Positions 1-55,757 of a DNA stretch of 64,000 bases are shown here, piece after piece. The DNA is from Candidatus Omnitrophota bacterium. Its GTDB lineage: Bacteria > Omnitrophota > Gorgyraeia > JAHIPI01. How positions within the stretch are numbered: position 1 is the first letter of the stretch; each line of letters starts with the position of its first letter. A program made the translations under genes and the position numbers. Under the pieces are notes generated by a model. The model did not search any database. It was not told the DNA's origin and saw nothing but the letters and a program-made list of their open reading frames with translations. The stretch lies in NCBI GenBank assembly GCA_016783745.1, contig JADHVZ010000001.1, positions 9,447-73,446 on the forward strand, read 5' to 3'.

Positions 1-590
1 CCGCTTCTCGACAAACTGAGTCTCTTCTTTTTTTTTCCGCGGCTTAAACTTGCGAGAGTTGATGCCGGGCGCGTATCCGGTGTCTTTTGCCGGCTGGGGC
101 GCTGTCGCGCCCGTCTCATCATAGGTATATTCGGGCAAGGGCCTCGTGGGTTTGTCAAGCGGTGTATCGTGCGTATGGCGAGATTCATCTCCCGATATCG
201 GAGGCGGAGATTCATGCGAAGAGTTGCTAAGCGCGACGGTAAAATATTGCGGGGAGGCACTATCCCTTACCACAATCGTTTTTGTGGCGCTTGAGTATCC
301 GGCCGCGCTGCAGGTTACTGTAATATTACGGTATGCGCCGCCCGGAACGGGGATATCATTTACAAGCGCCTCTCCGGACTGGTTTGTGCCGGCCGCGGAC
401 GAGTATCCTTGTGCGCTCAGCGATACCGAAGCCCCGGCGATACCCTGATTATTGGCCGCGTTTACTACTCTGATGACCACTTTTGCGAGGGTATATTTTA
501 GAGTGGGCGTAAATTCCGTCGCGCGGGCTTCATTCGGAAAGATAAACAAAATCACAAGAATAATAAAAAATAAGAGGGGACGTTTCACCT
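1..590 (-). CDS. Secreted hypothetical protein, 5'-partial at the window edge. Start is GTG at 590-588 preceded by AAGGAG.
   Basis: Reverse-strand translation gives VKRPLLFFIILVILFIFPNEARA..., a signal-peptide-like N-terminus with an RBS 9 nt upstream. The ORF runs off the left edge, so it is absent from the ORF track. Confidence 0.4.
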
Positions 591-642
591 TAACACAACT
601 CCTTTCCGCATAAAGACTTGCGTCAGTCACCTGTGCATCTTT

Positions 643-2475
643 TTAGTCGCCGCTGGGGTGGCCGCCGTCGCCGCTGGGGTGGTATGACGGTGAGCCGGAT
701 CCCGACTGGTTTATGGCGTTGGAGATGGCGCCCGCGGCTTGTCCTATGGCCCGCCAGGTAGCCTCGTTCGCTCTCTGCTGGGCTATCCTTCTGGCCTCTT
801 CCTGGCGGATCTGCTCGGGCGTTGGAATGCTTACAAAGGCGGCCCCGCCGTCGAATGTGGGAATAATGCCGCCCGAATAGAATTGTCCCATCATGGCATG
901 CATCTTATCCTGATAGCGCTCGAGCGCTATCTTCTTTTCTTCAGGTGTCGCCTGCGGGTTATCAAGAACTTCCTTTAATTCGTCCGGGTTGGACCTCTCC
1001 TTCTCACGATGTTCCCGTTCCAGCCCGCGAATCTCAAGCACCAGGTTGAATGCTTCGTGCTCAAGCATCCTGCGTTTATTCCTAATCTTGTTAATCTTAT
1101 CGGTTAGTGCCTTGCGCGCTGCCCTAGTGGCTTTGTCTGTTCCTTTTCCAAGAGCTTTCTTACTTTTTTCCAGGCGCTCTTCTTCAATATAAAGCTCCTC
1201 TACCTGTTTATCTAATTCTATGACTCTGTCGCCCCGTTCATCGTGCTCTCCCTTGCCTTCTTCGCCTGATACTTTTACTTCGCCTTCCGCTTTTGCTTTA
1301 GCCGCTTCCTGACGCGCCTTTTCTTCAGCCTGCCTGCGTGCCTCTTCGTCCCTTTTGCGGGCCCTTCTTTCACGGTCCTTTCGCCTTGCACGATCCTGAG
1401 CCCATTCAGTGATGGCATTGAGGCCTTGAGCGATATTGCTCAAGGCCGTTTCATCGGTCAGCGTGCGCCCCTCTTGCTGATATGCGTTGTCCCCCGTAAG
1501 CACAGGCACAGAATCGATAGCGTAGTCGATATTAACTTCGGGAAGAGGTATTCCGGGAACAGACTCGCCTTCAGGGGCATCAGAGATGCCATATTCTGTC
1601 TCAAGCTCAAGCCACTCTCCGTCAAACATCTCGTTCAGCAGACCAACGGAGCTGTTCAGTAATCCCGCCGCTGTGCTGAGCACATCGGCGGCCGCATCCA
1701 GAGATTCTTCGTTGACGATATACTCGCCGTGCTTGAAACGCCCGCTTACGCCTATGGGCACGTTACGTAAGTATATCTTTGCGGCACTACTTACCGCCTT
1801 GTCAAAGACATAACCCTTTACTTCGCTCTCTAAGTAATTGATGGTGTCATCTATCATCTCTTCGCCGGTCTCATCAAGTATATGCTCATATACCTTTTCG
1901 TTATTACTAAGGCGCCCGGCTAAGATCTGCCTCTTTCTCCGGAGCTCCTTTATACCTTCCTCTGTCTTCATCTTCTCCTTGTCTTTATCATATTTTTCCC
2001 ATGCATCTTCAATGCGCGCGAGCTTATGCCTGGCCATCCTGTCCTCATTGGTAAGCTTCATAAGGTCGCTGTCAATTTTCGCCACTGCTTCACGTTTAGG
2101 CTCAGGGCCCAATGAGTGTCTTTGCAGCTCAAGCTTTTCCTTCTCGTGCGATATCTCTTTTGTCCTCCGCTCCAATTCACCACGCTGAAAGACAGGCCCG
2201 CCGAATTCACCCTTTAATACAGAGTTGTAATAATGGTATCTGAATGCCAGCTCGTCTGTTGAGGCCCTCAGTTCGGCGGCCGCCATATCGTAGTTCACAA
2301 AACGCTCAAAGAGCGTTGCCCCATAAAAAGTTCCGCTGACGGCTGCTCCGGCATAGCCGATGGCGGCTATAAGGGTGACTACCGCATCCGCGTTTGGATT
2401 GCCGAGAAGGACGGTTGAGATAAGGATAAATGATATAATTTTCGATAATCTATTTCTCATGTTTTTAGCGCGCAT
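643..2475 (-). CDS. Membrane-anchored coiled-coil protein, K/E/R-rich, function unknown
   Basis: 610-aa ORF with an N-terminal hydrophobic segment, long charged heptad-like stretches and a Gly/Ser/Pro/His C-terminal tail. No recognisable catalytic motif. Confidence 0.5.
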   Translation of the reverse strand: MRAKNMRNRLSKIISFILISTVLLGNPNADAVVTLIAAIGYAGAAVSGTFYGATLFERFVNYDMAAAELRASTDELAFRYHYYNSVLKGEFGGPVFQRGELERRTKEISHEKEKLELQRHSLGPEPKREAVAKIDSDLMKLTNEDRMARHKLARIEDAWEKYDKDKEKMKTEEGIKELRRKRQILAGRLSNNEKVYEHILDETGEEMIDDTINYLESEVKGYVFDKAVSSAAKIYLRNVPIGVSGRFKHGEYIVNEESLDAAADVLSTAAGLLNSSVGLLNEMFDGEWLELETEYGISDAPEGESVPGIPLPEVNIDYAIDSVPVLTGDNAYQQEGRTLTDETALSNIAQGLNAITEWAQDRARRKDRERRARKRDEEARRQAEEKARQEAAKAKAEGEVKVSGEEGKGEHDERGDRVIELDKQVEELYIEEERLEKSKKALGKGTDKATRAARKALTDKINKIRNKRRMLEHEAFNLVLEIRGLEREHREKERSNPDELKEVLDNPQATPEEKKIALERYQDKMHAMMGQFYSGGIIPTFDGGAAFVSIPTPEQIRQEEARRIAQQRANEATWRAIGQAAGAISNAINQSGSGSPSYHPSGDGGHPSGD

Positions 2476-2959
2476 CTTCCGCCTCTTCTATGGGAACCGG
2501 GAGTGTCTGGACGAAGACGACCTTTTCGCCTTGCAATGCCACTTTAACCTGATCGAAGTAGTCGTACATCGTTACGCCTTCCATCAGGTCGGAATTGATC
2601 TTTCCGCTCGCGGCCGGCTTACCGAGTATCTTTTCCATATCTTTCATCGTCATGCCGTATTTGAACTCTGTCGGCCTGAAGTCCGGCCACTGGAAGTAGT
2701 CCGGGAGCCTTTTTTGCGGCACAAATCGCAAAAACCTGCCGTTTGAGAAGGAAAAGCTTCTCTCGCAGCTAAAATATGTCCAGACCTCAACACGCTTTTC
2801 TGCGTCCATCAAAAGGGCAAAGATATCGGGATAGCCGAAGGCATCTACAAGTTTCTGCTGATCTTTTGACAGGCGGTCTTTTGTAAGGACGCCGCATCCC
2901 AGCACAATAAGCGCTATTACGACGGAAATGCAGATTGTGAAAATCAAAAATTTCTTCAT
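2465..2959 (-). CDS. Putative lipoprotein
   Basis: N-terminus MKKFLIFTICISVVIALIVLGCG has a lipobox-like LGC. It overlaps the downstream gene by 11 nt, so it is probably in the same operon. Confidence 0.45.
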   Translation of the reverse strand: MKKFLIFTICISVVIALIVLGCGVLTKDRLSKDQQKLVDAFGYPDIFALLMDAEKRVEVWTYFSCERSFSFSNGRFLRFVPQKRLPDYFQWPDFRPTEFKYGMTMKDMEKILGKPAASGKINSDLMEGVTMYDYFDQVKVALQGEKVVFVQTLPVPIEEAEDAR

Positions 2960-4161
2960 AAACTATTCTCTAATGTCTCTACGTAATTCATCAGATTGTC
3001 GCAGAGATTGGCGTATGAGGCGGTTCCAAACTCGAAGCGGGCGCGCTTAAGGTCGCTTGAACAGAGCCCCAGCTGTTCTGTCCAGACAGCCTTCTGCTCG
3101 TCTGTCCACTCCTTGTCCGGTGAATAATGGGGGAGGAGGCCGGCCAGCCTGGCATACGCCAAATTGAGAAATAGAAATCCATTTCTATTGCCGGTCCGGC
3201 CCTCTTTCATTTTATTAAGGGTGTTCTCGAACTTTGTCATCATCTCGATCGCTTCTTCGTACTCCCCTGAGACCAGCGCTTCATTTATTCTGTCTATGGT
3301 GACGGCGCATTGGACATCTTTTTTTACGTTTTTCATGAAAGCGGCGGCCCAATAGTCTATCTGCGGCAGGAATCTCTTGACCGATACTTTGTAATCGTTA
3401 TCATTGAGCTTCTGATAGCCCTTCACAAAGTCTATAAGCTCGGGATTTGTAAAGTATTCACGGGCGAGTTTATAATATTCACCGGCGTATGTGAAAGGAT
3501 AACACGCCCTTCTCAGATATGCCATTGCAGTGTAGTTAGTATCGGAGGGTTTTATCGATTTCGTATTTTCTATCGCGCATATGTAGTAGTAGAAGCCCTT
3601 AGATATATATAAAAAACCGTGCGCCTGGCGGTTACCCGGATCGATCATTCTGGATGAAGCGAATATTTGAATGGCCAACTCCAGATATTGCTTTGCTTCT
3701 GTGTAGTTGGCCGTGTTATAGGAAGCGCCGGCTTTGTCAAAATGGGCGACGCCCGAGGAGAAGACCTCCTGCGACCAATCAGCCGGCTGTGACTCTACGG
3801 CCTCTCTTAAGCCTTTAGCTAAATTTTCAAGATTTTCGTAGGCTAATAAAGCCCCCTCTGAGCCTGGATCGAGCTCTATAGCCTTCTGATAATACTCGGC
3901 GGCAGAGCCATATCTCCCCGCCTTCTGATATTCGGCGCCGCGGTCATTATACTCAGCCGCGGTTTCAGGCTCATTTTTACGTCTGGCGACATATTCGGAC
4001 CCGGCATCATCACCCGCGTCATTCCATTCGGCCATGAAGCCCTCAATAGCAGATCCGATAAAATCAAGGTTTAACAAAAGGGTCCATGAGACATATAATA
4101 CGAGGATAATAGATAGGGTTAAGACGATTTTTTTCATATAGATACGCGGCTTGGGCTTCAT
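2956..4161 (-). CDS. Membrane-anchored TPR-like repeat protein
   Basis: N-terminal TM helix followed by repeated A-x-Y / Y-x-x-A motifs (AEYNDRGAEYQKAGRYGSAAEYYQKAIELDP). It is the third gene of a minus-strand operon spanning 643-4161. Confidence 0.45.
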   Translation of the reverse strand: MKPKPRIYMKKIVLTLSIILVLYVSWTLLLNLDFIGSAIEGFMAEWNDAGDDAGSEYVARRKNEPETAAEYNDRGAEYQKAGRYGSAAEYYQKAIELDPGSEGALLAYENLENLAKGLREAVESQPADWSQEVFSSGVAHFDKAGASYNTANYTEAKQYLELAIQIFASSRMIDPGNRQAHGFLYISKGFYYYICAIENTKSIKPSDTNYTAMAYLRRACYPFTYAGEYYKLAREYFTNPELIDFVKGYQKLNDNDYKVSVKRFLPQIDYWAAAFMKNVKKDVQCAVTIDRINEALVSGEYEEAIEMMTKFENTLNKMKEGRTGNRNGFLFLNLAYARLAGLLPHYSPDKEWTDEQKAVWTEQLGLCSSDLKRARFEFGTASYANLCDNLMNYVETLENSL

Positions 4162-4250
4162 TCCCTTCTAATTAAGAAGTGTACCACATATTCCGCTTGC
4201 CGTCCAATTTTTAGGTTGTTTTCTTTGTAAATTAGGGTAAACTTTAAGGT

Positions 4251-6054: not shown

Positions 6055-6540
6055 ATGAAAAAACGCATGAAGACTAAAAGTTCCTCAACCTCTGCGGTTG
6101 CCGATCAGGATATCGTGGGACTTCTTACTGCATTGGTCCAGAAGCTTACCTCTTTCGAAGCGAAGATAGACACAGTCCTCAGCCGGATCCCATCACAACC
6201 TTTTGTGGCACCCCCGCAGCAGCCGACGTCGGTCTCTTCATCCGAGCGGCGCAGGGAACCCAGGACCATGCACAAAGTGATCTGCGCAGATTGTGGCAGG
6301 GGTAGTGAAGTCCCGTTCAAACCGAGTGGCGGCCGTCCGGTCTACTGCAAGGAGTGCTTCACAGCACGCAAGAATAACGGCACCTTCAAGCCGCGAGGGG
6401 ATGGCAGGCCAAAAGAAGGGTCGCCAGTACATGTTAGTCCGCCCGAAAAGCCAGAGGCGGTCAAGCCCGCGAGGCCAGTCAAAAAAGAGAAGCCGGCGAC
6501 AAAGGAGAAAAAGAAAAATAGGCGAAAAAAAAGTAGATAG
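6055..6540 (+). CDS. Lysine-rich C4 zinc-ribbon protein, paralog 1
   Basis: AAGGAG RBS. CxxC-x15-CxxC core VICADCGRGSEVPFKPSGGRPVYCKECF, a basic K/R-rich tail and an N-terminal amphipathic segment. Paralogous to 7330-7821. Confidence 0.6.
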   Translation: MKKRMKTKSSSTSAVADQDIVGLLTALVQKLTSFEAKIDTVLSRIPSQPFVAPPQQPTSVSSSERRREPRTMHKVICADCGRGSEVPFKPSGGRPVYCKECFTARKNNGTFKPRGDGRPKEGSPVHVSPPEKPEAVKPARPVKKEKPATKEKKKNRRKKSR

Positions 6541-6599: not shown

Positions 6600-7238
6600 G
6601 TGTTACTGGCCCAAGACAGAAAGTGTACCCTTAAAAAAGTGTCGCGTCTAATTTTTGAAAAACATAGACATTCTATATCAAAAAAAGAGATCAGCGCTCT
6701 GCCTATCAAACATTACACCGGCCCTATCCATGTGATAGATTCGGACGAGAAAATGAGAGCGGCCGTGCGGTCTCTCGGCAGAGAGAAGGTCTTAGGTTTT
6801 GATACGGAGACGAGGCCCGCTTTTTATAAGGGCATATCCTATCTGCCGTCCCTGCTCCAGCTTGCTGCCGGCGACGGGGTATACATATTCCAGATAGGGC
6901 GTATCGATTCTCATAAACCGCTTGCCGGTATTCTGGCCGATCATAATGTGGTGAAAGCGGGCATTAGCGTCTCGGAGGATATAAAGAAACTGAAAGATGC
7001 ATTGCCCTTCGAGCCCTCACGTTTCATCGAACTGGCGGGCATGGCGGCCAAGGCCGGAATAAAGAACGCAGGCATACGCGGCCTGGCGGCGCTGCTATTC
7101 GGTTTCAGGATATCCAAATCGACGCAGTGCTCCCGCTGGGATGCGCCGACGCTTGCGCACGCGCAGATAGTTTACGCGGCTACCGACGCATGGATATGCA
7201 GAGAGATATATTTCGCGCTGAAAAAATGGGTCGGGTAA
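6600..7238 (+). CDS. 3'-5' exonuclease domain protein (DEDDy, RNase D / WRN-exo-like)
   Basis: Exo I motif GFDTETRP, central acidic motif and YAATDAW (Y-x3-D exo III), typical of PF01612-type exonucleases. The exact start is uncertain, with alternative starts downstream of 6600. Confidence 0.65.
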   Translation: MLLAQDRKCTLKKVSRLIFEKHRHSISKKEISALPIKHYTGPIHVIDSDEKMRAAVRSLGREKVLGFDTETRPAFYKGISYLPSLLQLAAGDGVYIFQIGRIDSHKPLAGILADHNVVKAGISVSEDIKKLKDALPFEPSRFIELAGMAAKAGIKNAGIRGLAALLFGFRISKSTQCSRWDAPTLAHAQIVYAATDAWICREIYFALKKWVG

Positions 7239-7329: not shown

Positions 7330-7821
7330 GTGAAGAAGCATTTAAAGCGTAACAGAACACCAGCCGCGCGGAAGGATGAGCCGGGTATAGCCGGCCTCAT
7401 CAATGATATGCAGCAGCAGTTGAACGCCATAGAGAAGAAGCTGGATAACTTGATCAGCCAGTCTTCAAGCAGGCCTTTTGAGAAAAGCTATTCACAGAAG
7501 CCTGCCCGGCACTTCGATCACGTTCCTCGCCATGATAGAGGAAGAGAAGGCAACAGGGACGGCGAAAGGACTCTTACCCGGGTCATTTGCTCGGGCTGTA
7601 ACAAAGAATGCGAGATACCGTTCAAGCCCAGCGGGGACCGTCCGGTATATTGCAAGGAATGCTTTGTAAAGCGAAAGAAATCTAAACCGTTTAACGCAAA
7701 CAGGGATAATAGGTCCGAAGACAGAGATTTTCCCCGTAAATATCATTCCGATAAGCAGCAGGGTAAAAAATGGCAAAAGCCCTTCAAGAAGAAAGAGCCA
7801 TTTTACACGCGTATAAAGTAA
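7330..7821 (+). CDS. Lysine-rich C4 zinc-ribbon protein, paralog 2 (GTG start)
   Basis: VICSGCNKECEIPFKPSGDRPVYCKECF is near-identical to the paralog-1 core. N-terminal GIAGLINDMQQQLNAIEKKLDNLISQSSSRPF parallels DIVGLLTALVQKLTSFEAKIDTVLSRIPSQPF. Candidate TTGCAA-18-TACATT promoter upstream. Confidence 0.6.
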   Translation: MKKHLKRNRTPAARKDEPGIAGLINDMQQQLNAIEKKLDNLISQSSSRPFEKSYSQKPARHFDHVPRHDRGREGNRDGERTLTRVICSGCNKECEIPFKPSGDRPVYCKECFVKRKKSKPFNANRDNRSEDRDFPRKYHSDKQQGKKWQKPFKKKEPFYTRIK

Positions 7822-7952
7822 CACGCTGAAGCATTTGACATAAAATCAGGCGCTTTACATAACTTGTTGCGTAATAAAAAATTATAAATAAATCATTCAT
7901 TCAATATTTTGTCTGTAATCTATTGTAAGTACAATAGTCGCGCAACAGTCTA

Positions 7953-8474
7953 ATGTTACCCAGCCAAGAAATTATGAAGAAAACATTTATAATAGACGGA
8001 TACAACGTAATACATAAAATTCCGGAGCTGTGCGCTAAACTCGAAGAAAGCCTCGAAAGCGCTCGAGATGCTTTGGTAATAGAAATACAAAGTTGGAAAA
8101 GACGGTACGCTGACTCAAAGGCATATATTGTATTCGACGGAAAAAACGAAGACATTTTTGATGATCTGCCTACTCGGATATTAGGAATCGATTGTGTCTT
8201 TACCAGGTCCAAAGAATCCGCTGACGACCGAATAATAAGCATGGTGCGAAACGCGGAAGCCCCATCTCTTATAACTGTTATCTCAGATGACAACCAGGTG
8301 AGGAATGGCTGCAGGATGCAAGGGGCTCAAGTACAATATTCGTCTTTTATCAGCATAAATAAGAAAAAGCCCCACAGGCCGGTTAACCGCATCAACAATA
8401 TTGATAATAACATGCAAGAGCAGGAAATAACCGACTATTACAAGAAACATTTGATCAATAAAGGAATCCTATAG
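7953..8474 (+). CDS. YacP/Rae1-like NYN-domain (PIN-like) predicted ribonuclease
   Basis: FIIDGYNVIHKIPEL... is the conserved YacP-family start. An alternative start lies at MKKTF (7974). AT-rich gene. Confidence 0.6.
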   Translation: MLPSQEIMKKTFIIDGYNVIHKIPELCAKLEESLESARDALVIEIQSWKRRYADSKAYIVFDGKNEDIFDDLPTRILGIDCVFTRSKESADDRIISMVRNAEAPSLITVISDDNQVRNGCRMQGAQVQYSSFISINKKKPHRPVNRINNIDNNMQEQEITDYYKKHLINKGIL

Positions 8475-8665
8475 CAAAATATCGTAGGGTTTCCAGCTCT
8501 CCGCCACTCCCTATTCAATCTCATCGGAATTGTTGTAACCTATATATTCTCCAGCAACATATAACTGCGAAAAGAAACACCTACCGTCAGTTATCATCTG
8601 TCTCAGAATCCCTGTTTTTACCGCTATTGTTGGTAAACTGTTGGTAGAAATAGGAGGTGGTAGTT

Positions 8666-8833
8666 GTGAAAGCGATTATTTACGCCAGATGCAGAACAGA
8701 TGAAAGCAGGCAGGATGTGGAAGTCCAGTTAGGCCAGCTGAGACGAGAGTACGAGCAAGAATTTGAGTACGGTTCCGGGTATAAGGGTGATCAGCCTAAG
8801 CTAAAAGGCTGTATAGGGCAGATAAAAATGGGG
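8666..8833 (+). pseudogene. N-terminal fragment of a serine recombinase (resolvase/invertase); catalytic Ser replaced, then truncated
   Basis: VKAIIYARCRTDESRQDVEVQLGQLRREYEQEFEYGSGYKGDQPKLKG aligns to the resolvase N-terminus (AIGYARVSTDEQ...IFEDKASGKSTDRPGLK), with Arg where the nucleophilic Ser belongs. AGGAGG RBS and GTG start. The reading frame then runs into the convergent TPR gene. Confidence 0.45.
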
Positions 8834-8847
8834 CTATATATAATTTA

Positions 8848-10677
8848 TTATTTTACCCCCAATATTTTCTTTAATTCTTCGAGTAACTTAGGATTAATTT
8901 TACACCCCAGCGCTTTTGCTTGTAGTATATCTCTTAGACTTTTATCATATTCTTTTTTGATATAATAGGCAATCCCTCGGTTGTTATAGGCTAAAGCATG
9001 GTTGGGGTCGATTTCTATTACCTTATTGTAATCTAATAACGCCTGGTTGATGTTGCCTTGTTTTCGATAAAGCAGGCCTCGATTAAGGTAGGCTAAATCA
9101 CAATTGGGGTCGATTTCTATTGTCTTGTTGTAATCTAAGAACGCCTGGTTGATGTTGCCCTTACTTCGATAGGTATTACCTCGATTATAGTAGGCTAAAG
9201 CATAGTTGGGGTCGATTTCTATTCCCTTGTTATAGTCTAAGAGTGCCTGGTCGAGGTTGCCTCGGTCTTGATAAAGCAGGCCTCGATTATAGTAGGCTAA
9301 AGCATAGTTGGGGTCGACTTCTATTGCCTTGCTGTAATCTAAGAATGCCTGGTCGAAGTTGCCTTTCTTTTTATAGGCATTCCCTCTGTTGTTGTATGGT
9401 CTGGCTTTATGGGGAGATTTACAAGTTACATCATTCCATAGAGTAAGCTCATCTTTCCAGACAAAATTTCTATAATAAGTTAATATTGAATAAGAAGTAA
9501 CTATCATAAGTAGAATTATAACCACCTGCTTTAGGGCATTCTTTCCGAAAAGATAATACATGCCACTTACTATAAAAAGGCTATAACCAACGATGGGTAA
9601 ATAAAGCCTGTGTTCAAATATTACATCATCAAGAGGCACAATGCTTGATTCCGGCAATAAAGTTATAAAAAACCAGAAAATACCAAATGACAGTAGTCTA
9701 TATCTAGGGAATATACGGATTGCGCCCATTATAATTGCGGCCAGGATAAATAAACTGCCTAATGTATTTATATCCATTAAGTTCTTAGCTATTGGGTAGT
9801 CATAGTCCAGATTCTGGTTTAACGGCGCAAAAAGAAGCCTTATGTAAGTTAATATAACGCGAAATTGAGTTAAAAAATACGCCCCCCCTTTATTGAGAGG
9901 CTTGTCTATTAACCGCTGTATGCACATAAAGTTTTCAGACCTGGTAGAAAATAATAATAAAGGAATAATTAATATTGTAATCAGGAAATATAAGGCGTAT
10001 TTCCAGTTAGCATATCTTTCTATATTAAAGAAACAAAATTCACATAATAGTACTATTAAAGGTAAGGTCGCCGCGTTTTCCTTAGTAAACATGCTGAGTA
10101 TGCAGAAAACGTAGGAAAAAGCGTAAAAAAAAGGCCATTTTGAGGTAGCTTTATTATCTATCTGTAATAGCCTTGTCTTAATATAGAAACATAGTGAAAA
10201 AAGATAAAAGAATCCTACTAAAGAACTACTCCTTTGCCATATGTAAGTGACAGATTGTGTCTGAACAGGGTGGGTTACGAATATTAAGCCTACAAATAAA
10301 GCTATAGAATCAGCGTATTTAGAAATAGCGTTCTTCTTCATTGTAGGCGTAGAAAGGATAAGTATAGTCAGCCAGAATACTAGAATAGCCGAAGCTAAAT
10401 GGATAGCTGTATTAAAGACATGATAGGAAAATACATTAACTTTGGAGAAATGATAGTTTAAAGCAAAGGTAAGAATAGTGATAAACCTGGCGGGCCAGGC
10501 ATTCCAAATATTTCGCAGATTCCAAATGTCTCTTATGGCAAAATTATTAACTATACCAGATCCGTCATCAAAATGAAATGAGTTAAAAAAAGTATTGGAG
10601 TAGACTATAAACCCGAATAAAAGCAGTATGATGATACTCAGTAATTTATAATTTCGATTAAAAAATCTTGTTAACAT
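8848..10677 (-). CDS. GT-C fold membrane glycosyltransferase (PMT/TMTC-like, DUF1736-type) with C-terminal TPR repeats
   Basis: Multi-TM N-terminal region with FHFDDGSGIVNN in the first loop (the DD/DE motif of GT39-like GT-C enzymes). The C-terminus has more than six TPR units (AYYNRG.LY...G....A..DYNK.IEIDPN). Very AT-rich. Confidence 0.6.
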   Translation of the reverse strand: MLTRFFNRNYKLLSIIILLLFGFIVYSNTFFNSFHFDDGSGIVNNFAIRDIWNLRNIWNAWPARFITILTFALNYHFSKVNVFSYHVFNTAIHLASAILVFWLTILILSTPTMKKNAISKYADSIALFVGLIFVTHPVQTQSVTYIWQRSSSLVGFFYLFSLCFYIKTRLLQIDNKATSKWPFFYAFSYVFCILSMFTKENAATLPLIVLLCEFCFFNIERYANWKYALYFLITILIIPLLLFSTRSENFMCIQRLIDKPLNKGGAYFLTQFRVILTYIRLLFAPLNQNLDYDYPIAKNLMDINTLGSLFILAAIIMGAIRIFPRYRLLSFGIFWFFITLLPESSIVPLDDVIFEHRLYLPIVGYSLFIVSGMYYLFGKNALKQVVIILLMIVTSYSILTYYRNFVWKDELTLWNDVTCKSPHKARPYNNRGNAYKKKGNFDQAFLDYSKAIEVDPNYALAYYNRGLLYQDRGNLDQALLDYNKGIEIDPNYALAYYNRGNTYRSKGNINQAFLDYNKTIEIDPNCDLAYLNRGLLYRKQGNINQALLDYNKVIEIDPNHALAYNNRGIAYYIKKEYDKSLRDILQAKALGCKINPKLLEELKKILGVK

Positions 10678-10788
10678 AATAATCCATTATCAATAGTTAA
10701 AAGCGACAGTTCTATTCTTTTGCGATATTTATATATTATACCAAATTGCGCTTACTGTAAATATTTTTTTATCATTGCATAGCAAAAT

Positions 10789-10860
10789 GGGGACAGACAC
10801 TTTTTACATAATTAGGGACGAAGCCTAATTACTAAAGTGTCTGTCCCTATTTTATCGTAG
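10789..10860. repeat. Nested palindromic element copy 1. The outer stem GGGGACAGACACTTT pairs with AAAGTGTCTGTCCC. The inner stem is AATTAGG with CCTAATT.
   Basis: Read directly. Right flank is ATTTTATCGTAGAG. It lies in the divergent intergenic region between the TPR-GT gene and the beta-CASP gene. Confidence 0.8.
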
Positions 10861-11025
10861 AGTTAGATACTTTCTACTTACTTGAATTTCACCCCTTTCC
10901 ACCTTGCCAAAACCAGCCCGCAGGAGTAAAATAATTACTTGCCACAAACAGATCAGGGTGTTGCAACAGTATCTTGAGCCTAAGGTCTGATATAGCTAAC
11001 CAAAACAAACGGATTTTTCCAATAT

Positions 11026-12318
11026 ATGAAACTAACCATTCATCGCGGGACTCAAGAAATCGGTGGTAGCTGTGTAGAGCTAAACACAGGAAAGTCTCGA
11101 ATACTTATAGATCTCGGAATGCCGCTTGTAAATGATAAAAAAGAGTCTTTTGATTCAAAAACACTTACCAATAAATCTCCGGATGATCTTAAAAAACTAA
11201 AAATCCTTCCTGACATAAAGGGTCTGTATAGAGGTGAAGAAAAAGCCATAGACGGCATTCTTATTTCTCATTCCCATATGGATCATTATGGGTTTCTCAA
11301 GTTTGTGAATCCTGATATACCGATCTATATGAGTGAAGGCGCTAAGATGTTGGTCGAGATATCGGATATTTTTATTCCTCATAAAACGGGGAATCTTAAT
11401 GTAAAGACTATTGATAAAATAAAGAGTTTTGCTATAGGAGAATTTAAGGTCGATTCGTATCTGGCAGATCATTCAGCTTTTGACGCGCGTGCGTTCTTGA
11501 TCGAAGCTGATGGTAAGAGAATATTCTATTCAGGTGATTTCAGGGCCCATGGGAGGAAAAGCGTTCTATTCAAGCGTATGATCTCGCATCCACCGGAAGC
11601 TATTGATGCCCTGCTTATGGAAGGATCAATGATCGGAAGGAGTAATCAGGCCTATAAAGATGAAAATGCCATACAGTCCCGGATCGAAAAGATCTTAAAA
11701 TCCAGCAATAACGTAACTTTCCTGTTTACCTCATCGCAAAATATTGATAGGCTCGTCTCAGCGTACAAGGCATGTATTAAAACCGGACATATCTTCGTAA
11801 TAGACATTTATACAGCTTATATTCTGGACAAGCTTAGAAAAGTATCAAAGGGCATTCCGCAATTCAACTGGCGAAACATCAAGGTAAAGTTTTTGAAAAA
11901 CCAGGCCGACACACTGGCAAAGAAGGTATCAACAAAACTTCTTTATCATTACAATACACAAAAGATAGACATATTCGAGATAAACAGAAAGAAAAACAAG
12001 ATCCTTATGCTTGCGCGTGATAATTCGATTTTTCCCAAGATCATAAAAGGCATAGACGATCCCAGAGGCGCAACAGTCATCTATTCAATGTGGGGAGGCT
12101 ATTTAAACGACAGATTCCGCGACTTCTGCGCAAATAAAGGCCTTACAATCGAACAAGTCCACACAAGCGGCCATGCTACAGTTGAGGATCTGGAAGCATT
12201 TGCGAAGGCCATAAGCCCAAAAACGTTAATACCGATCCATACTTTTGAAGGACAGAAATACCCGGAGATGTTTGAAAACGTTAGAATCTTAAAAGACGGC
12301 GAGCTTTTTGAGATTTAA
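11026..12318 (+). CDS. beta-CASP family metallo-beta-lactamase-fold nuclease (RNase J / CPSF-like core, no KH domain)
   Basis: N-terminal GTQEIGGSCVEL (compare CPSF73 GQEVGRSC), MBL motif HSHMDHYG, ADHSAF...SGDF, and the C-terminal beta-CASP motif-C HTSGHA. Confidence 0.7.
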   Translation: MKLTIHRGTQEIGGSCVELNTGKSRILIDLGMPLVNDKKESFDSKTLTNKSPDDLKKLKILPDIKGLYRGEEKAIDGILISHSHMDHYGFLKFVNPDIPIYMSEGAKMLVEISDIFIPHKTGNLNVKTIDKIKSFAIGEFKVDSYLADHSAFDARAFLIEADGKRIFYSGDFRAHGRKSVLFKRMISHPPEAIDALLMEGSMIGRSNQAYKDENAIQSRIEKILKSSNNVTFLFTSSQNIDRLVSAYKACIKTGHIFVIDIYTAYILDKLRKVSKGIPQFNWRNIKVKFLKNQADTLAKKVSTKLLYHYNTQKIDIFEINRKKNKILMLARDNSIFPKIIKGIDDPRGATVIYSMWGGYLNDRFRDFCANKGLTIEQVHTSGHATVEDLEAFAKAISPKTLIPIHTFEGQKYPEMFENVRILKDGELFEI

Positions 12319-12353
12319 ATGTTAGATACGCGCCATAAATAGGAGGATTTACT

Positions 12354-12755
12354 ATGCAGATAGAAGTGTTTTCTTTGTGTGACGCAGCTACGGTTAACGC
12401 CGGTAAGTTAAATATATTGGGAGCCTTTGATACGATTTGGGCAAGAAAAATACCGATTGTGCATCCCCAATGTTCCGTTGCTCTCAGAATCAGATTTGAT
12501 CGTATTGAAAAGGGCGACCATAGTATATCAGTAAATTTTGTTGATGAAGATGGTAAGCATATTATGCCGGCAGCCAACGGCACTATAAGAATAAATATCC
12601 AGAATGGGCAGCGTTCCGCATCCGCGCATTTAGTCCTGAATATACAGGGCCTTAATCTTAAGAGGTGCGGGGAATATTCAGTGGATCTGGCTATAGATGG
12701 CAGAAGGGATTTATCTTTACCTCTTTATGTGAGAGAACATAAAGAGCGAAAATAA
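12354..12755 (+). CDS. Hypothetical protein (133 aa) between two nuclease genes
   Basis: GGAG RBS and a compact same-strand arrangement. No motif recognised. Confidence 0.4.
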   Translation: MQIEVFSLCDAATVNAGKLNILGAFDTIWARKIPIVHPQCSVALRIRFDRIEKGDHSISVNFVDEDGKHIMPAANGTIRINIQNGQRSASAHLVLNIQGLNLKRCGEYSVDLAIDGRRDLSLPLYVREHKERK

Positions 12756-12812
12756 TCTCATTACACTTAACAGCGTAAAAACTAATAAAGCTTATTTAAG
12801 GAAGATGAGCCG

Positions 12813-13595
12813 ATGAAATTATTGCGGACTATAATTATATTCGATCTTGAGACAACCGGCACATGGGTTGAAAAGGATAAGATCGTTGAGATCGGCATGG
12901 TTAAATTGATGCCGGACGGGACAAGGCAGACTTATGTAAAGCGTGTCAATCCGGGTATGCCGATCCCAAGGAATGTCAGCCGCCTTATTAATATTAACGA
13001 TGATGACGTTAAAGACGCGCCGCCTTTTAAGGATATAGCTAAAGAAGTGACGGAGTTTATAGGCGATTCCGACCTGGGCGGGTTTAATATCCTGAGGTTT
13101 GATCTGCCTATTCTTGAGCGCGAGCTTTATGGTGCCGGCTTTAGCTTTTATTGGCGCGAACGGGACATTTACGATGCTCAAAAGGTTTATCACATACATG
13201 AAAAGAGAGATCTGACAGCCGCTTATAAACTATACTGCGATAAAGAGCTTGAGAATGCTCATTCCGCCCTTGGTGACGCTGAGGCGACAGTTGAGATATT
13301 TGATTCCCAGATCAAAAGGTATGGGGCTCCGGAACAGGGTATAGAGTCTTTGAAAGATTTTGATTACGAGCGCTCCAGCGCATATTTTGATAAAGAGCGT
13401 AAGTTTTTCTGGTGGAACGGGCATCTGTATCCCGTATTCGGAAAGTACGGAAGGAAAAAACATATACAAGATATACTTAAGATAGATCGTCGGTATTTAG
13501 AGTGGATGCTTAGCTCTGATTTTAGTGAAGAAGTTAAAATGATGATTAAAAATGTTCTCAGCGGCAAATTTCCGCAAGCACCCGAGAACTTATAA
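12813..13595 (+). CDS. DnaQ-like DEDDh 3'-5' exonuclease with a C-terminal extension
   Basis: Exo I motif IIFDLETTG, exo II, and exo III HSALGDAEAT (H-x4-D, DEDDh type). About 90 extra C-terminal residues of unknown function. Confidence 0.7.
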   Translation: MKLLRTIIIFDLETTGTWVEKDKIVEIGMVKLMPDGTRQTYVKRVNPGMPIPRNVSRLININDDDVKDAPPFKDIAKEVTEFIGDSDLGGFNILRFDLPILERELYGAGFSFYWRERDIYDAQKVYHIHEKRDLTAAYKLYCDKELENAHSALGDAEATVEIFDSQIKRYGAPEQGIESLKDFDYERSSAYFDKERKFFWWNGHLYPVFGKYGRKKHIQDILKIDRRYLEWMLSSDFSEEVKMMIKNVLSGKFPQAPENL

Positions 13596-13600
13596 TTTTT

Positions 13601-14779
13601 TTATCCCGTATGGTAATCCCAGACGGCTTTTATATCCGAAAGAGGAACCACAGAAAGCTTTTTCCCCAATTTATAATTTGTTTTTCCCGGGTATATAACC
13701 CATAAATGCGCAAGCTCGAGATCTTTTAAAGCTATTTCCATGGATCTCGTTTTTCTCGGGGCATCGGAGTATTTAAATTCTACGCCCCAGTTTTTTCCTT
13801 TATGCTGCCAAAAAAGATCTAGCTCAGCCCCCGCATGCGTTTGCCAAAAGTAAAGTTCCTCATCGCGTTTATTCAGGCTTCTGGCGATACACTCAAGAGC
13901 AAGGCCTTCCCATGAGGCGCCAAGCTTATTATGCGAGAAGAGTTGTTTTTTATTACCTATAGATATGAGAGAGTGAAAAATACCCGAATCTCGTATATAT
14001 ATTTTCGGGCGTTTTATAAGACGCTTTTTTGTATTGGTGTACCATGGTTGCAAAACTCTGAGCATAAAAGTTCCTTCAAGGATATTTATGTATTTTTTTA
14101 CAGTCATGTCTGAGATACCGAAAGAGCGGCCTATTTCCGAGTGATTTACCACCTGCGAATGATAATGGCTTATCATGATCCAGAATTTTCTAAGAGTGCG
14201 GGCAGGTATGAATATTCCCAGTTGCGGAATATCTCTCTCAAGAAAAGTGCTTATGTAATTTTCAAGCCATAAAAAAGATTCATCATATGATTTTGCCAGA
14301 TAAGATCTTGGGAAGCCTCCTCGCAGCCATAATTTTTGCAGGTTCTTTTTTCCTATGTCTGAAAGAGTAAACCCGCCCAGGCGATGATAGGCTATTCTTC
14401 CCGCAAGCGATTCCGAGCTTTGCTGTATTAAATCCTTTGAAGCGCTCCCCAGTATTAGGTATTTCTGTTTTGGGTTTGAATCTACGAGATAGCGGATAAG
14501 CTGGAAGATGTCGGGTGCGCGTTGTATTTCGTCTATTACTATAAGCCCCTTGAGGTCCTCAAGCGCTAGCTGGGGGTTTTCAAGCCCGACCGAATCGCGC
14601 GGGTTTTCAAGGTCAAAATAATACTCGAATCTAATTTGATTGGCGATAACAGTTTTTCCGCATTGCCTGGGTCCCAGGATTGCCGTAACCGGAAAAGAAG
14701 AAGTTAGGTTATTAATATTTTCAGTCTCGGTTTTTCTTTTGATCAGTTTTTTCATGCTATAAGTATACGCTATATTCAT
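13601..14779 (-). CDS. AAA+ ATPase, AAA_14/DUF4143 family
   Basis: Walker A ILGPRQCGKT, Walker B LIVIDEIQ, and a C-terminal DUF4143-like region. Architecture typical of this widespread family. Confidence 0.7.
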   Translation of the reverse strand: MNIAYTYSMKKLIKRKTETENINNLTSSFPVTAILGPRQCGKTVIANQIRFEYYFDLENPRDSVGLENPQLALEDLKGLIVIDEIQRAPDIFQLIRYLVDSNPKQKYLILGSASKDLIQQSSESLAGRIAYHRLGGFTLSDIGKKNLQKLWLRGGFPRSYLAKSYDESFLWLENYISTFLERDIPQLGIFIPARTLRKFWIMISHYHSQVVNHSEIGRSFGISDMTVKKYINILEGTFMLRVLQPWYTNTKKRLIKRPKIYIRDSGIFHSLISIGNKKQLFSHNKLGASWEGLALECIARSLNKRDEELYFWQTHAGAELDLFWQHKGKNWGVEFKYSDAPRKTRSMEIALKDLELAHLWVIYPGKTNYKLGKKLSVVPLSDIKAVWDYHTG

Positions 14780-14837
14780 TGAAAAGTCAAACTATAACCT
14801 TGAGATTTCAAGGCAAAATATAGCCATGTATTTATGT

Positions 14838-14876
14838 AATTAGGCTCCGCCCCTAATTACTAAAGTGTCTGTCCCC
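14838..14876. repeat. Partial copy of the palindromic element (inner AATTAGG/CCTAATT hairpin plus AAAGTGTCTGTCCCC arm only)
   Basis: Read directly. The left outer arm is absent and the loop sequence differs from copy 1. Confidence 0.7.
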
Positions 14877-14994
14877 ATTTTTCCCAAGCATATTTCGCTT
14901 GGGATTTATTGTTATTGGGGGTATAATTTATATAGCTTATTTACAAATAACACACTCCTTGTGAATAAACCGAAATAGGAACATTGGAGTACTT

Positions 14995-15795
14995 ATGCGA
15001 AAAATAGGACTACAAATTTTTATAACTTTAATATTCTTGTTATCCGTAGTCAGTGCCAGGGTTTACTGCGATGAAATAAATCTTAAGAATGGTAATTCTA
15101 TAAAAGGTATTATTATAAAAGAATCCGAAGGATCGTTGACTCTTGAGATCGGGATAGGATCCATTACTGTCTTGAAAGAAGATATGGAGAGCATAAACAG
15201 GACTACAGAAGAAGAAAACGATCTTTTGAGGTCAGAATGGACAAGAAATAAGGCGGATAGGCAAAAGGAGTATCAGCGCATGAAGGAAAATGCATCAGAG
15301 GCTAATGCGCAAGAGATCGATTTAGAAGCGTTAGATGGATCAAGAAAAGACAACGTCGCAAAAAAAGAGAGTGAAAAGGCCTCGTCGGAAAAACCCTGGT
15401 ATGATTTTACAAGCCCTGAATCGACTTTTAATAGTCATATGTATGCTTGCAAAGCCTTGGACTTTGAAAAAAGCGATCTGTGCTATACAAAAGAATTTCA
15501 GAGTTTCACTAAAACTAATAAAGAATATAGATCCCATCGCAATACCGGGCAGCTGCGAAACGCATATGACTATTGGCATAATAAACCCTATAAACTTGAA
15601 ATGCACAGAAACAAGGCCATAATGCGCTTTTCGCCCCCATTTAAAAGGCCGGAACCCTTCTATTTTGTTAAAGAGGCGGATGGCTGGAAAATAGACGGGA
15701 TGTTTTCGTTCAATAATTTAATAATCGAGAATAGCGGTGGCTGGTTTTGGCGTAATTCCAAAATCGACAACGAAAAGGTATGGTTAAGCAAATAG
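14995..15795 (+). CDS. Secreted hypothetical protein
   Basis: Signal peptide MRKIGLQIFITLIFLLSVVSA, 266 aa, no recognised domain. AT-rich. Confidence 0.45.
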   Translation: MRKIGLQIFITLIFLLSVVSARVYCDEINLKNGNSIKGIIIKESEGSLTLEIGIGSITVLKEDMESINRTTEEENDLLRSEWTRNKADRQKEYQRMKENASEANAQEIDLEALDGSRKDNVAKKESEKASSEKPWYDFTSPESTFNSHMYACKALDFEKSDLCYTKEFQSFTKTNKEYRSHRNTGQLRNAYDYWHNKPYKLEMHRNKAIMRFSPPFKRPEPFYFVKEADGWKIDGMFSFNNLIIENSGGWFWRNSKIDNEKVWLSK

Positions 15796-15846
15796 GTCGA
15801 ATATCACTATTCGCGCTTTAGCTGAATAGTCAGTCTGATTTTGGCA

Positions 15847-15879
15847 AAATGGGGCAGCTGTCCCCATTTTATCGTAGAG
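15847..15879. repeat. Reduced copy of the palindromic element (AAAATGGGG-CAGCTG-TCCCCATTTT followed by ATCGTAGAG)
   Basis: It shares both flanks (GCAAAATGGGG and CCCCATTTTATCGTAGAG) with copy 1, but the centre collapses to CAGCTG. Confidence 0.7.
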
Positions 15880-15958
15880 TTTTCGGCTCGTCGCCATCCC
15901 ATTGCCTTGCCAATTCCCCTCATTGCTGGTATACTTGAAGGAAACGAGGAGGCGTTGA

Positions 15959-16204
15959 ATGACAATTGAAATGATACGATCAGCGCTAGGCTGGTGTTCT
16001 ATAATCAATATAGGATTACTCCTGTGGTGGGTTTTTGTTATTACGTTGGCACACGATCGGGTCTATAAATTTCACGGGAAATGGTTTAAGTTGTCGGTAG
16101 AAAAGTTTGACGAGGTCCATTATACGGGCATGGCGTTCTTTAAGATAGCCATATTTCTTTTCAATATTGTCCCATATTTCGCATTACGCATTATTGGTTC
16201 ATAG
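15959..16204 (+). CDS. Small membrane protein
   Basis: 81 aa with two hydrophobic helices. It is the first of four consecutive small TM ORFs. Confidence 0.35.
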   Translation: MTIEMIRSALGWCSIINIGLLLWWVFVITLAHDRVYKFHGKWFKLSVEKFDEVHYTGMAFFKIAIFLFNIVPYFALRIIGS

Positions 16205-16218
16205 GAAAAGGGGGTAAC

Positions 16219-16452
16219 ATGCTGGTGGTATTATCGGTAAGCATTTTTGCGGTATGCCTGGCTGTGGGGTTTTTCCTGCTCTTACGGCCGGAGCTGGTGA
16301 TAGAGATGCAGAGGCGGTTCTATGCATTGATAAACTGGCGGATGGAGCCTATCTCTATGGAGAAGGAGATACGCAATACCAGGATAATGGGCGGTGCCTT
16401 GATCGTTCCGACCTTGGTAGTGATAGTCTTATTTATCGTAGCTAATGTATGA
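16219..16452 (+). CDS. Small membrane protein
   Basis: 77 aa with two TM helices. GGGG RBS-like sequence upstream. Confidence 0.35.
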   Translation: MLVVLSVSIFAVCLAVGFFLLLRPELVIEMQRRFYALINWRMEPISMEKEIRNTRIMGGALIVPTLVVIVLFIVANV

Positions 16453-16708
16453 ATTAGAAGACATGGACACGCAAAAACAACAAGCCCAAAAATGGTATTA
16501 TAAGACATCTGTCCTTGTAATAGCCTTTCTTTGCGTAGGGCCCCTGGCATTGCCGCTGGCGTGGCTCAATCCCACTTACACCAAGCTCAATAAGATAGTG
16601 ATAACTCTTATTATGCTAGTCGTTGCCTACTTTCTTTGGAATATCTGTGAGGATTCATTGAGGGCCATAGGAGATTATTACAAAATGTTCAAGGAATTGA
16701 ATTATTAA
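16445..16708 (+). CDS. Small membrane protein
   Basis: 87 aa with two TM helices. It overlaps the previous ORF by 8 nt. Confidence 0.35.
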   Translation: MYELEDMDTQKQQAQKWYYKTSVLVIAFLCVGPLALPLAWLNPTYTKLNKIVITLIMLVVAYFLWNICEDSLRAIGDYYKMFKELNY

Positions 16709-16772
16709 CGCGCAAAGATTGTCAGGCGCTTTGGTATACCAAGAAAGGATTATGCGCAATAGGTGAGGGAAA

Positions 16773-17039
16773 ATGATGCAGAAAGTAGCGTTTATAGCCG
16801 CAATTGTATTACCTTTGTGGAATATACCGCTTATCCTGAGAGTCATAAGTAGAAGATCCTCGGAAGATATAAGTATATACTGGGTGCTGGGGGTATGGAC
16901 ATGTTTTTTGCTGATGGCTCCGGAGGCCTTCCGATCCCCTGACCCTGTCTGGCGCGCGTTTAATATCATGAATCTTATACTTTTTTCCGCGGTTGTGATC
17001 GTTGTATTGATGTATCGAAAGCCCCAAAGGAGAGATTGA
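16773..17039 (+). CDS. SemiSWEET/PQ-loop-like small transporter (3 TM)
   Basis: LPLWNIPLILRVISRRSSEDISIYWVLG parallels the SemiSWEET PQ-loop signature (LPQIIKIIRTKSTEGIS). 88 aa. Confidence 0.45.
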   Translation: MMQKVAFIAAIVLPLWNIPLILRVISRRSSEDISIYWVLGVWTCFLLMAPEAFRSPDPVWRAFNIMNLILFSAVVIVVLMYRKPQRRD

Positions 17040-17165
17040 GCGATGATCCGTATTGATTATGATAAGTGCTGTTGGAAAGACGGCAAGTGTGTCAGCGGCT
17101 CTTGCGTACCGGCATGTAAATACGGCGCGATAATATCAGAAACATAAGAGGCAATAGGGGGCAGC

Positions 17166-17576
17166 ATGAGATTCGCGGTAAGCGGCCATAAAGAGGAAGC
17201 CTTAAAAGCGAAAATGGCTTTTTTGGGTATCAAAGAAGCGGATATTGAGGAAAAGTTCATACGCTCAGGCGGAAGGGGTGGGCAAAATGTCAACAAGACC
17301 TCCACGTGTGTCTATCTTAAGCACAAGCCTTCAGGGATAGAGGTCAAGTGCCAAAAGGAGCGCTCCCAGGCGTTAAATCGCTTCCTGGCTAGAAGGATCC
17401 TTACCAATAAGATCGAATCACTTATACTGGGTAAAAAGGCGGAAAAACAGAAGAGAATAGAGAAGATAAGGCGCCAGAAGCGAAAACGCTCCAAGAAAGC
17501 CAAAGAGAAGATCCTCAGATATAAAAAGATGCGCTCGGAAAAGAAGAAACTGCGAAGGCCTCCCGACGTAGAATAA
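17166..17576 (+). CDS. arfB: Peptidyl-tRNA hydrolase ArfB (YaeJ-type alternative ribosome-rescue factor)
   Basis: GGQ motif in [16 protein letters not shown] and the characteristic basic C-terminal tail. 136 aa. Confidence 0.75.
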
Positions 17577-47393: not shown

Positions 47394-47483
47394 CTATAGC
47401 GGTCGGGCTCCGGGGCCAAAAAGTGAGGAATGGGCTTTTTGCCCCTTCGTCCTGCAGCAATGGAATAAGCGGGCAGGACTAGC

Positions 47484-55756: not shown

Positions 55757-55757
55757 A

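Follow-up and report, generated by a model that had tools for sequence, protein, structure and literature searches.

Genomic islets and mosaic variable regions are recognized by a local compositional shift, a degraded recombinase, a laterally exchanged accessory gene and repeats at the joints between their segments. These features are also found in a block of 9.25 kb (positions 7850-17100) within the 64-kb Omnitrophota window analysed here, the window being the whole stretch of DNA at its full length. From its low GC content and the remnant of a serine recombinase, the block had been described as a horizontally acquired and now fixed island, with a cargo reminiscent of defence against mobile genetic elements; this description is referred to below as the original prediction. 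Here we present an account that we favor with some reservation, in which the block is a mosaic, composed mostly of locally reshuffled native Omnitrophota genes plus an accessory or inserted core of about 3.8 kb, and not one island. The core probably extends from about 8.5 to 12.3 kb. The block as a whole is a case of ordinary mosaic genome evolution with one orphan gene.

The gene order in relatives was compared from the left flank, where the gene of an RNase D-like 3'-5' exonuclease (6600-7238, plus strand; Pfam DNA_pol_A_exo1, E=1.3e-21) served as the synteny anchor. Its relatives at 82-87% identity are all metagenome-assembled genomes (MAGs) of Omnitrophota. In the nearest species found (L002, CAZYBX01; related contigs and loci used for comparison carry labels of this form) a contig of 6.3 kb shows the order AAA-DUF4143 (minus strand), exonuclease, NYN, the zinc-finger gene zf2, typA and DEDDh. 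The DNA identity to the window in the five shared genes is 85.6, 88.9, 81.7, 81.6 and 82.0%. On this contig NYN, DEDDh and AAA-DUF4143 are at most 6 kb away from the exonuclease and zinc-finger genes that flank the block in the window, and the whole set surrounds the housekeeping gene typA; three genes of the supposed island are therefore old neighbors of the left flank, arranged around the gene of a translational GTPase. The YacP/NYN ribonuclease gene of the block (7953-8474, plus strand; Pfam NYN_YacP, E=3.5e-22) is native, its orthologue in L002 sharing 75% amino acid identity (81.7% at the nucleotide level) and following directly after the exonuclease gene. The orthologue of the AAA_14+DUF4143 ATPase (13601-14779, minus strand; identified by Pfam, and by PADLOC as PDC-S01 with E=2.6e-77) is 88% identical and adjoins the exonuclease gene. 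Three independent assemblies (L027, L028 and L029) have their left ends inside this ATPase gene (window 13601-14779), which suggests strain variation or extra copies of the gene in the genome. In the window the exonuclease gene is bracketed by two paralogous treble-clef zinc-finger genes (zf_Tbcl_2, about 34% identical; 6055-6540 and 7330-7821), and such genes recur beside the exonuclease or the DEDDh gene in other Omnitrophota (L002, L004, L065/66, L069 and L075), the neighbor being DEDDh in L065/66, L069 and L075.

The DEDDh (RNase T/DnaQ-like) 3'-5' exonuclease (12813-13595, plus strand; Pfam RNase_T, E=7.9e-19) is a conserved gene of the lineage. A scan with the protein delivered 80 related loci with 55-86% identity, in which the GC content at third codon positions (GC3) ranges from 0.21 to 0.87 and broadly tracks the GC content of the contig (0.29-0.66). 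Because GC3 follows the carrier contig, DEDDh behaves as a vertically inherited, ameliorated gene. On contigs of sufficient length the neighbors of DEDDh are repeatedly genes that also fill or flank the block. The exonuclease gene is found directly upstream of DEDDh in L048 and L085, typA adjoins DEDDh in L044 and L051, and the gene of an RF-1 domain protein overlaps it by 4 nt in L068 and overlaps or adjoins it in L054, L090 and L097. Genes for a cold-shock protein, a DEAD-box helicase, GreA and an RRM protein were recognized near DEDDh loci by eye from the translations. In the window an ArfB-like RF-1 domain protein with the GGQ motif forms the right flank of the block (17166-17576, plus strand; Pfam RF-1, E=1.9e-26).

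The remainder of the block is connected to the same surroundings in a looser way. The DUF6941 protein (12354-12755, plus strand; NCBI locus tag ISS26_00105), an Ig-like beta-sandwich, is 60-73% identical across the phylum; the structure comparison returned a generic Ig-like sandwich without a functional lead, and a literature search on DUF6941 found nothing. In L038 and L039 the RF-1 gene follows directly after DUF6941, which is preceded by small open reading frames (ORFs) and by a protein with an N-terminus like that of the secreted protein of the block. The predicted secreted protein (14995-15795, plus strand) belongs to no Pfam family, has a signal-peptide-like N-terminus in its translation, and is 36% identical in its N-terminal domain to the protein upstream of the DUF6941-RF-1 pair in L038/L039. 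Four small membrane proteins with hydrophobic segments in their translations follow on the plus strand, the DUF6868 protein (15959-16204; Pfam E=3e-36) and those at 16219-16452, 16445-16708 and 16773-17039. Homologues of the block gene tm87 flank DEDDh in L056-L058, and in L016 a homologue of tm77 and the exonuclease gene are 6 kb apart. Two genes of the block alone, those of the recombinase stub and the beta-CASP protein (both described below), are without any counterpart linked to the flanking neighborhood.

Pfam and the translations agree with the earlier gene calls, namely NYN_YacP, the TPR protein, a metallo-beta-lactamase with RMMBL domain, RNase_T/DEDDh, AAA_14-DUF4143, the secreted protein and four small membrane proteins; the Pfam search added the DUF6941 and DUF6868 domains, of which DUF6941 was missing from the earlier gene list. 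Proteins identical to those of the window are present in the ENA assemblies ERZ247946xx and in an NCBI MAG. Gene order is the same in all contigs with identical proteins that span the region, which means that the sampled population carries the block in fixed form, as the original prediction had it; the only difference at the population level concerns the TPR gene, which can be longer by one TPR unit of 34 residues. A further expectation of an island, that the block should be missing from its place in relatives, is contradicted by L002, L038/L039 and other Omnitrophota. The composition of the block deviates as that of an island does, and absence or loss of synteny in relatives is not observed; because of the synteny described above, much of the block is to be regarded as conserved in place, which counts against the original prediction by its own standard.

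Signs of horizontal movement are seen in at least one gene, which codes for an orphan beta-CASP metallo-beta-lactamase nuclease of the EF2904-like type (11026-12318, plus strand), which is intact and contains the HSHMDH motif. Pfam detects Lactamase_B_2 (E=5.5e-14) and RMMBL (E=5e-6), and the best match in the PDB is 2az4 (EF2904, uncharacterised, 429 aa; E=3.5e-22), followed by RNase J (E=1e-13). The family has more than 4700 homologues, of which the top 120 are all about 430 aa long and 65-92% identical. At the DNA level the gene shares 91.9% identity with L032, more than is reached by any of the genes orthologous with L002 (81.6-88.9%), although the genes around it are unrelated. The homology is limited to window positions 11000-12312, beginning 26 nt upstream of the ATG, within the nine final codons of the partner gene that precedes the beta-CASP gene in L032, and ending at the stop codon. 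Positions 11000-11025 (plus strand) are consequently read, by their DNA homology to L032, as a scar consisting of the last approximately nine codons of a lost upstream partner. Because the identity to L032 tops that of all L002 orthologues in spite of unrelated surroundings, the gene appears, from comparison of the sequences, to have been captured from a shared mobile pool without its partner.

In each of the five further contexts examined in Omnitrophota (L032, L034, L035, L036 and L037) an upstream gene coding for 279-331 aa overlaps the start of the beta-CASP gene by 4 nt, and the window contains no overlapping partner ORF. The partner genes belong to no Pfam family, and a profile comparison among them (hhalign) gave probabilities below 2% and no significant homology. 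By eye the proteins share the motif hDhh-x(6-13)-hxEhK, which resembles that of PD-(D/E)xK nucleases, and there are marginal matches to NucS_C (E=0.03) and PDC-S18 (E=2.4e-5). Neighboring genes in these contexts code for BrnT/CopG, DUF2779, the restriction-modification proteins Eco57I, AccI and HsdM, SIR2_2, a reverse transcriptase and DUF6361 with a helicase. A 35%-identical beta-CASP homologue with the same overlap is located on a mobilizable Rhizobium plasmid (pRphaN671a) beside an Eco57I-type methylase and a GIY-YIG nuclease. The beta-CASP gene could tentatively be seen as the conserved half of a two-gene module with a fast-diverging upstream gene, possibly a PD-(D/E)xK nuclease, and this module may act as a new system against phages or plasmids; the window would then hold an orphaned copy with a 26-nt scar, perhaps redeployed beside RNA-processing genes. 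The contexts of the module comprise restriction-modification, toxin-antitoxin, SIR2 and reverse-transcriptase genes in Omnitrophota, with distant relatives on proteobacterial plasmids. A literature search for a link of beta-CASP proteins with defence islands found nothing, and scans of viral contigs with the beta-CASP and AAA-DUF4143 proteins found no close relatives. A DUF2779 protein of about 495 aa, encoded behind another gene of about 200 aa, is found within a few kb of the partner and beta-CASP pair in L032 (5941-7425) and L036 (5204-6691); the two genes may represent a separate recurrent accessory module.

Left of the beta-CASP gene lies the TPR/GT-C gene (8848-10677, minus strand), which codes for a predicted membrane glycosyltransferase of the GT-C type (PMT-like) with a C-terminal TPR domain and, with 35% GC, is the strongest compositional outlier. 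The GT-C assignment of the original prediction holds, as the structure comparison confirmed the multi-pass GT-C membrane fold; the Pfam scan found five or more TPR repeats. A pair of aspartates (D37 and D38) directly after the first transmembrane helix (TM1) is invariant in 32 sequences, and its placement in extracytoplasmic loop 1 is taken from the helices of a structure model that has its lowest confidence there (pLDDT below 50 at residues 35-37). A PDB sequence search with the membrane domain gave no match. The family is very large (more than 5800 homologues), and apart from a partial sequence in L124 no homologue exceeds 62% identity. This nearest homologue (76% amino acid and 77% nucleotide identity) is located just downstream of typA. 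The window gene has a GC3 of 0.366, its homologue in L124 of 0.337 and the adjacent typA of 0.329 on a contig with 34% GC, so that the window copy resembles a gene from a lower-GC relative. Among co-occurring strains the length of the protein differs (609 versus 643 aa) by one 34-residue repeat (window 8965-9372; L023 7721-9652), and the difference fits a 102-nt repeat family inside the gene.

Convergent to the TPR/GT-C gene is the probable N-terminal stub of a small serine recombinase (8666-8830, plus strand; about 55 codons in an ORF of 8657-8965). The sequence AGGAGG precedes the GTG start at 8666, what follows AGGAGG reads MKAIIYARCRTDE, a typical beginning of a resolvase, and the YARCRTDE stretch places Arg at the position of the catalytic Ser in the YxRxS motif according to the Pfam alignment. 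The homology ends at about 8830, close to the stop of the TPR/GT-C gene at 8848, and after about residue 58 the ORF enters the antisense of that gene; a complete catalytic domain and the helix-turn-helix are not present. The match to Pfam Resolvase (E=0.0023) covers profile positions 1-61 of 145 and, with 18.5 bits, is under the cut-off of 23.3 bits. BLASTP against gamma-delta resolvase was not significant (E=0.15), and a PDB sequence search gave no match. The plasmid matches listed by tblastn are individually weak, and 14 of the 15 are N-termini of annotated recombinase genes. The resolvase fragment of the original prediction is on this basis accepted as a probable 55-codon stub that abuts the 3' end of the TPR/GT-C gene, with the Ser to Arg exchange and the truncation as described and with a family assignment below threshold; of the gene calls it is the least secure. 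The stub is located about 800 bp inside the block, past the native NYN gene and not at the block edge, and no intact integrase is present in the block.

A palindromic, strongly folding element occurs repeatedly in the intergenic DNA. Its 14-mer core GGGACAGACACTTT has nine exact copies in the window, compared with 0.21 expected in shuffled sequences even when up to two mismatches are allowed. The elements fold at -36 to -83 kcal/mol (z -8 to -15), all copies are intergenic, and no matches to the sequence were found outside contigs of the same population. The block had been said to contain three copies. One is a full REP-like element with tail box (10784-10864; hairpin 10785-10852, -38.3 kcal/mol, z=-8.3), one a half copy with the right arm and the inner hairpin only (14831-14882), and one a degenerate mini-hairpin copy with tail box (15845-15900; mini-hairpin 15845-15881). 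The element is also present beyond the block, at 30.2 kb and 50.7 kb, for which reason it is dispersed and not specific to an island; the idea that the palindromes mark island boundaries was rejected on the same ground. At 8472-8510 a repeat box (AGCAAAAT + TCGTAGGGTTTCCAGCTC..CGCCA..CC) aligns with 10782-10864 and 15843-15900 and lacks the palindrome. The flanking boxes of the element (AGCAAAAT / TCGTAGGGTTT...) thus stand alone at this locus, which resembles an empty or excised target site and gives a hint of present or past mobility of the hairpin. The joints between NYN, the stub with the TPR/GT-C gene, the stretch from beta-CASP to AAA-DUF4143, the secreted protein and the small membrane genes each carry a copy or relic of the element. 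The repeats may have caused the rearrangements or may merely have settled in intergenic DNA. Three of the four are followed by sigma-70-like sites (10904-10932, 14899-14927 and 15907-15935), and promoter-like matches in the region are no commoner than in shuffled sequence.

The composition of the block corresponds to this picture. With 39.31% GC, compared with 44.82% in the remaining window, the drop is real but modest, and the calculation bears out the dip over approximately 7.85-17.1 kb. Only 0.6% of 9.25-kb windows have a lower GC content than the block, and every one of them overlaps it. Median GC3 is 0.448 in the 11 block genes and 0.514 in the 51 other genes (Mann-Whitney p=0.0008); values of 0.46 or less occur also in nine of the 51 genes outside, and one small gene within the block has a GC3 of 0.63. 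The drop had been called sharp. Its left edge appears so partly because nowhere in the window is the GC content higher than in the flank at kb 1-8 (46-55% GC), and the right edge is gradual. Around the block, tetranucleotide distances of 0.27-0.29 are reached only in windows covering about 7-13 kb, whereas windows covering 11-18 kb give 0.18-0.20, within the normal spread of 0.12-0.23; the strongest anomaly is located at about 8-12.5 kb. A second AT-rich patch at 54536-59004 (GC3 0.30-0.42, tetranucleotide distance 0.29) is as deviant as the block and contains genes for a FabF-like ketoacyl synthase, a dehydrogenase and a 7TM-GAF histidine kinase.

In the account that we favor, native genes which elsewhere cluster with RNA-processing and translation quality control (RNase D-like exonuclease, YacP/NYN, DEDDh, TypA and ArfB-like RF-1) would have been reshuffled locally, with small envelope proteins interspersed among them. 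The core would comprise the dead serine-recombinase stub, the PMT-like TPR/GT-C gene, whose GC3 of 0.37 would fit a lower-GC relative, a full palindrome, and the beta-CASP gene, captured without its partner. Species-specific palindromic hairpins would mark the joints between the segments. The AT-richness of the block may then have several sources that add up: a membrane gene with a strong AT bias, intergenic elements rich in AT, a nuclease gene that was exchanged horizontally and native genes shifted somewhat towards AT, heightened by the contrast with the unusually GC-rich left flank. The data show the composition, the homologies, the gene order in relatives, the break in homology at 11000 and the GT-C fold; the direction and order of the rearrangements, and whatever part the recombinase or the repeats had in them, are inferences, and the nucleases would presumably act on RNA substrates.

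Several points weigh against this account. Synteny within the phylum is poor and the related contigs are mostly short, so that the label 'native' is based on recurrent linkage and not on collinearity; synteny around the exonuclease gene in 21 GTDB species was mostly uninformative, as gene order is poorly conserved. L002 alone shows several block genes together, on a contig of just 6.3 kb. The orthologues in the block have a GC3 that is 0.09-0.15 below that of L002, the exonuclease gene being unchanged, and replacement of the segment from a lower-GC relative would also explain this shift. A recent transfer of the beta-CASP gene is inferred and not proven, as it depends on how distant the L032 organism is, and the recombinase stub scores below its family threshold.

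Among the alternatives the one that survives best, improbable as we consider it, dispenses with horizontal transfer: the AT-richness would be specific to certain genes (membrane proteins, weakly expressed genes) and to AT-rich repeats, and rearrangement would have been internal only. In its favor, the patch at 54.5-59 kb is as AT-rich as the block or more so, with no signs of mobility noted; against it stands the recombinase remnant in the block. The nearest homologue of the TPR/GT-C gene is located beside typA, a gene of the same ancestral neighborhood, but the GC3 of 0.366 in the window gene represents a low third position that the amino acid composition leaves unexplained. The beta-CASP protein is highly conserved throughout the phylum (65-92%), and an identity of 92% is for this reason not anomalous by itself; the DNA identity to L032, however, is above that of all orthologues in the nearest species, stops at the gene borders and leaves the scar of the partner.

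We regard as very improbable, and by the synteny of L002, L038 and L048 as already largely refuted, that the whole 9.25-kb block is a single acquired island, integrated by the decayed serine recombinase and loaded with defence or anti-mobile-element cargo. GC and GC3 are lower across the block, but at 13-17 kb the composition does not leave the normal range, and that of DEDDh broadly tracks contig GC across the phylum. The recombinase stub near the left edge would suit an integration event, were it not placed about 800 bp inside, after native NYN; neither att-like direct repeats nor a tRNA gene flank the block, the only tRNA gene of the window being at 47.3 kb. Fixation in all spanning population contigs accords with a single acquisition, whereas the linkage of NYN, DEDDh, AAA-DUF4143, DUF6941 and tm87 to the flanking genes in other species does not. 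As for the cargo, the AAA-DUF4143 protein matches the PADLOC candidate PDC-S01, and the beta-CASP family occurs in defence-like contexts elsewhere; the search against PADLOC-DB 2.0 found no complete system in the block. The original prediction had noted that no known defence architecture matches, and this was correct. The defence cargo itself is not supported as a system: PADLOC matches are limited to DEDDh (a generic Cas-associated model and PDC-S48) and to AAA-DUF4143 (the unvalidated PDC-S01), and the beta-CASP, NYN, DUF6941 and TPR proteins match no PADLOC model. The horizontal acquisition of the original prediction is thus retained in part, through the recombinase remnant, the compositional shift and the signs of beta-CASP mobility, and given up for most block genes, which are linked to the flanks in relatives.

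It is hardly credible that beta-CASP, DUF6941, DEDDh and AAA-DUF4143, although side by side with short gaps (11026-14779) and with PADLOC matches for DEDDh and AAA-DUF4143, form an undescribed multi-gene defence system, which is already contradicted by the lack of co-occurrence (the combination recurs in same-population contigs alone, L023-L025 and, for the first three genes, L094, and is absent from five beta-CASP contexts, six DUF6941 loci and 79 other DEDDh loci), by the opposite strand of AAA-DUF4143 and by the typical position of DEDDh beside translation and RNA genes. A smaller operon or system of beta-CASP, DUF6941 and DEDDh was likewise rejected: the trio occurs only in the same-population contigs (L023-L025, L094), and no context from another organism combines the three. 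The richness in nucleases is better explained by the RNA-processing and ribosome-rescue neighborhood, so that there is no need to invoke defence.

Some features elsewhere in the window were recorded. The cumulative GC skew has its minimum near 3-4 kb, and at about 4.2 kb the coding strand changes from minus to plus (window 1-4250); the minimum may be a replication origin or simply the strand switch. The DnaE gene (DNA polymerase III alpha; 24447-29303, 1618 aa) contains an intein that includes a LAGLIDADG homing-endonuclease domain, as judged from the Pfam domains of the identical gene in L025/L026. A 12-nt tandem repeat (AAAGAAGCAGCG-like, about 11 units) at 35571-35702 lies in a coding region and encodes a low-complexity stretch rich in Lys, Glu and Ala. 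At 47315-47710, which includes tRNA-Arg(CCT), a 40-nt sequence that begins at the very 3' end of the tRNA gene (47392-47431) recurs 279 nt downstream with 85% identity (47671-47710), and a perfect 50-nt tandem duplication (47483-47582) is located between the two copies; these repeats could be an att-like trace of an element that integrated there or was excised. Just after a radical-SAM gene (51670-51878) a 62-nt unit is repeated head to tail in three copies, of which the first two are identical.

The case shows that a GC dip together with a recombinase scar can overstate an island, when a small inserted core is merged with reshuffled native genes. For the Omnitrophota it points out a recurrent, loosely linked neighborhood of RNase D-like exonuclease, YacP/NYN, DEDDh, TypA, ArfB-like RF-1 and treble-clef zinc fingers, and this RNA-processing and ribosome-rescue neighborhood gives a functional context to several unstudied families. 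The pair of a variable upstream gene and the EF2904-like beta-CASP gene is a testable candidate system absent from PADLOC-DB 2.0, and it is the only lead of wider interest.

Compared with known systems, the beta-CASP protein resembles RNase J, CPSF73/aCPSF1 and EF2904 (PDB 2az4) in its HSHMDH motif, its C-terminal RMMBL domain and its length of 430 aa (EF2904: 429 aa). Unlike members of the RNase J family it is far below the family cut-off of the NCBIfam model (71.7 versus 400 bits; RnjA 62.2 versus 820), and unlike members of its own family, which normally overlap a variable upstream gene in defence-like contexts, the window copy stands without a partner. The TPR/GT-C protein shares with GT-C enzymes of the PMT/TMTC type the acidic pair after TM1 and differs from them in matching neither Pfam PMT nor DUF1736. 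TMTC enzymes carry a TPR domain C-terminal to the membrane domain, and the same arrangement is seen in the window protein. The palindromes are comparable to repetitive extragenic palindromic (REP) elements and bacterial interspersed mosaic elements (BIME) as short, strongly folding, multi-copy intergenic palindromes with nested and truncated forms, whereas the window element is seen only in contigs of its own population and has one locus like an unoccupied site. The AAA-DUF4143 ATPase is a strong match, by hidden Markov model, to PDC-S01 (AAA_14-DUF4143, COG1373-like); PDC-S01 is an unvalidated candidate, whereas the window gene behaves as a resident, with its L002 orthologue beside the same exonuclease. 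In contrast to genomic islets and mosaic variable regions, the block has no att sites, tRNA target or intact integrase and shows no presence/absence polymorphism among the sampled strains, and most of the genes that it encloses are native.

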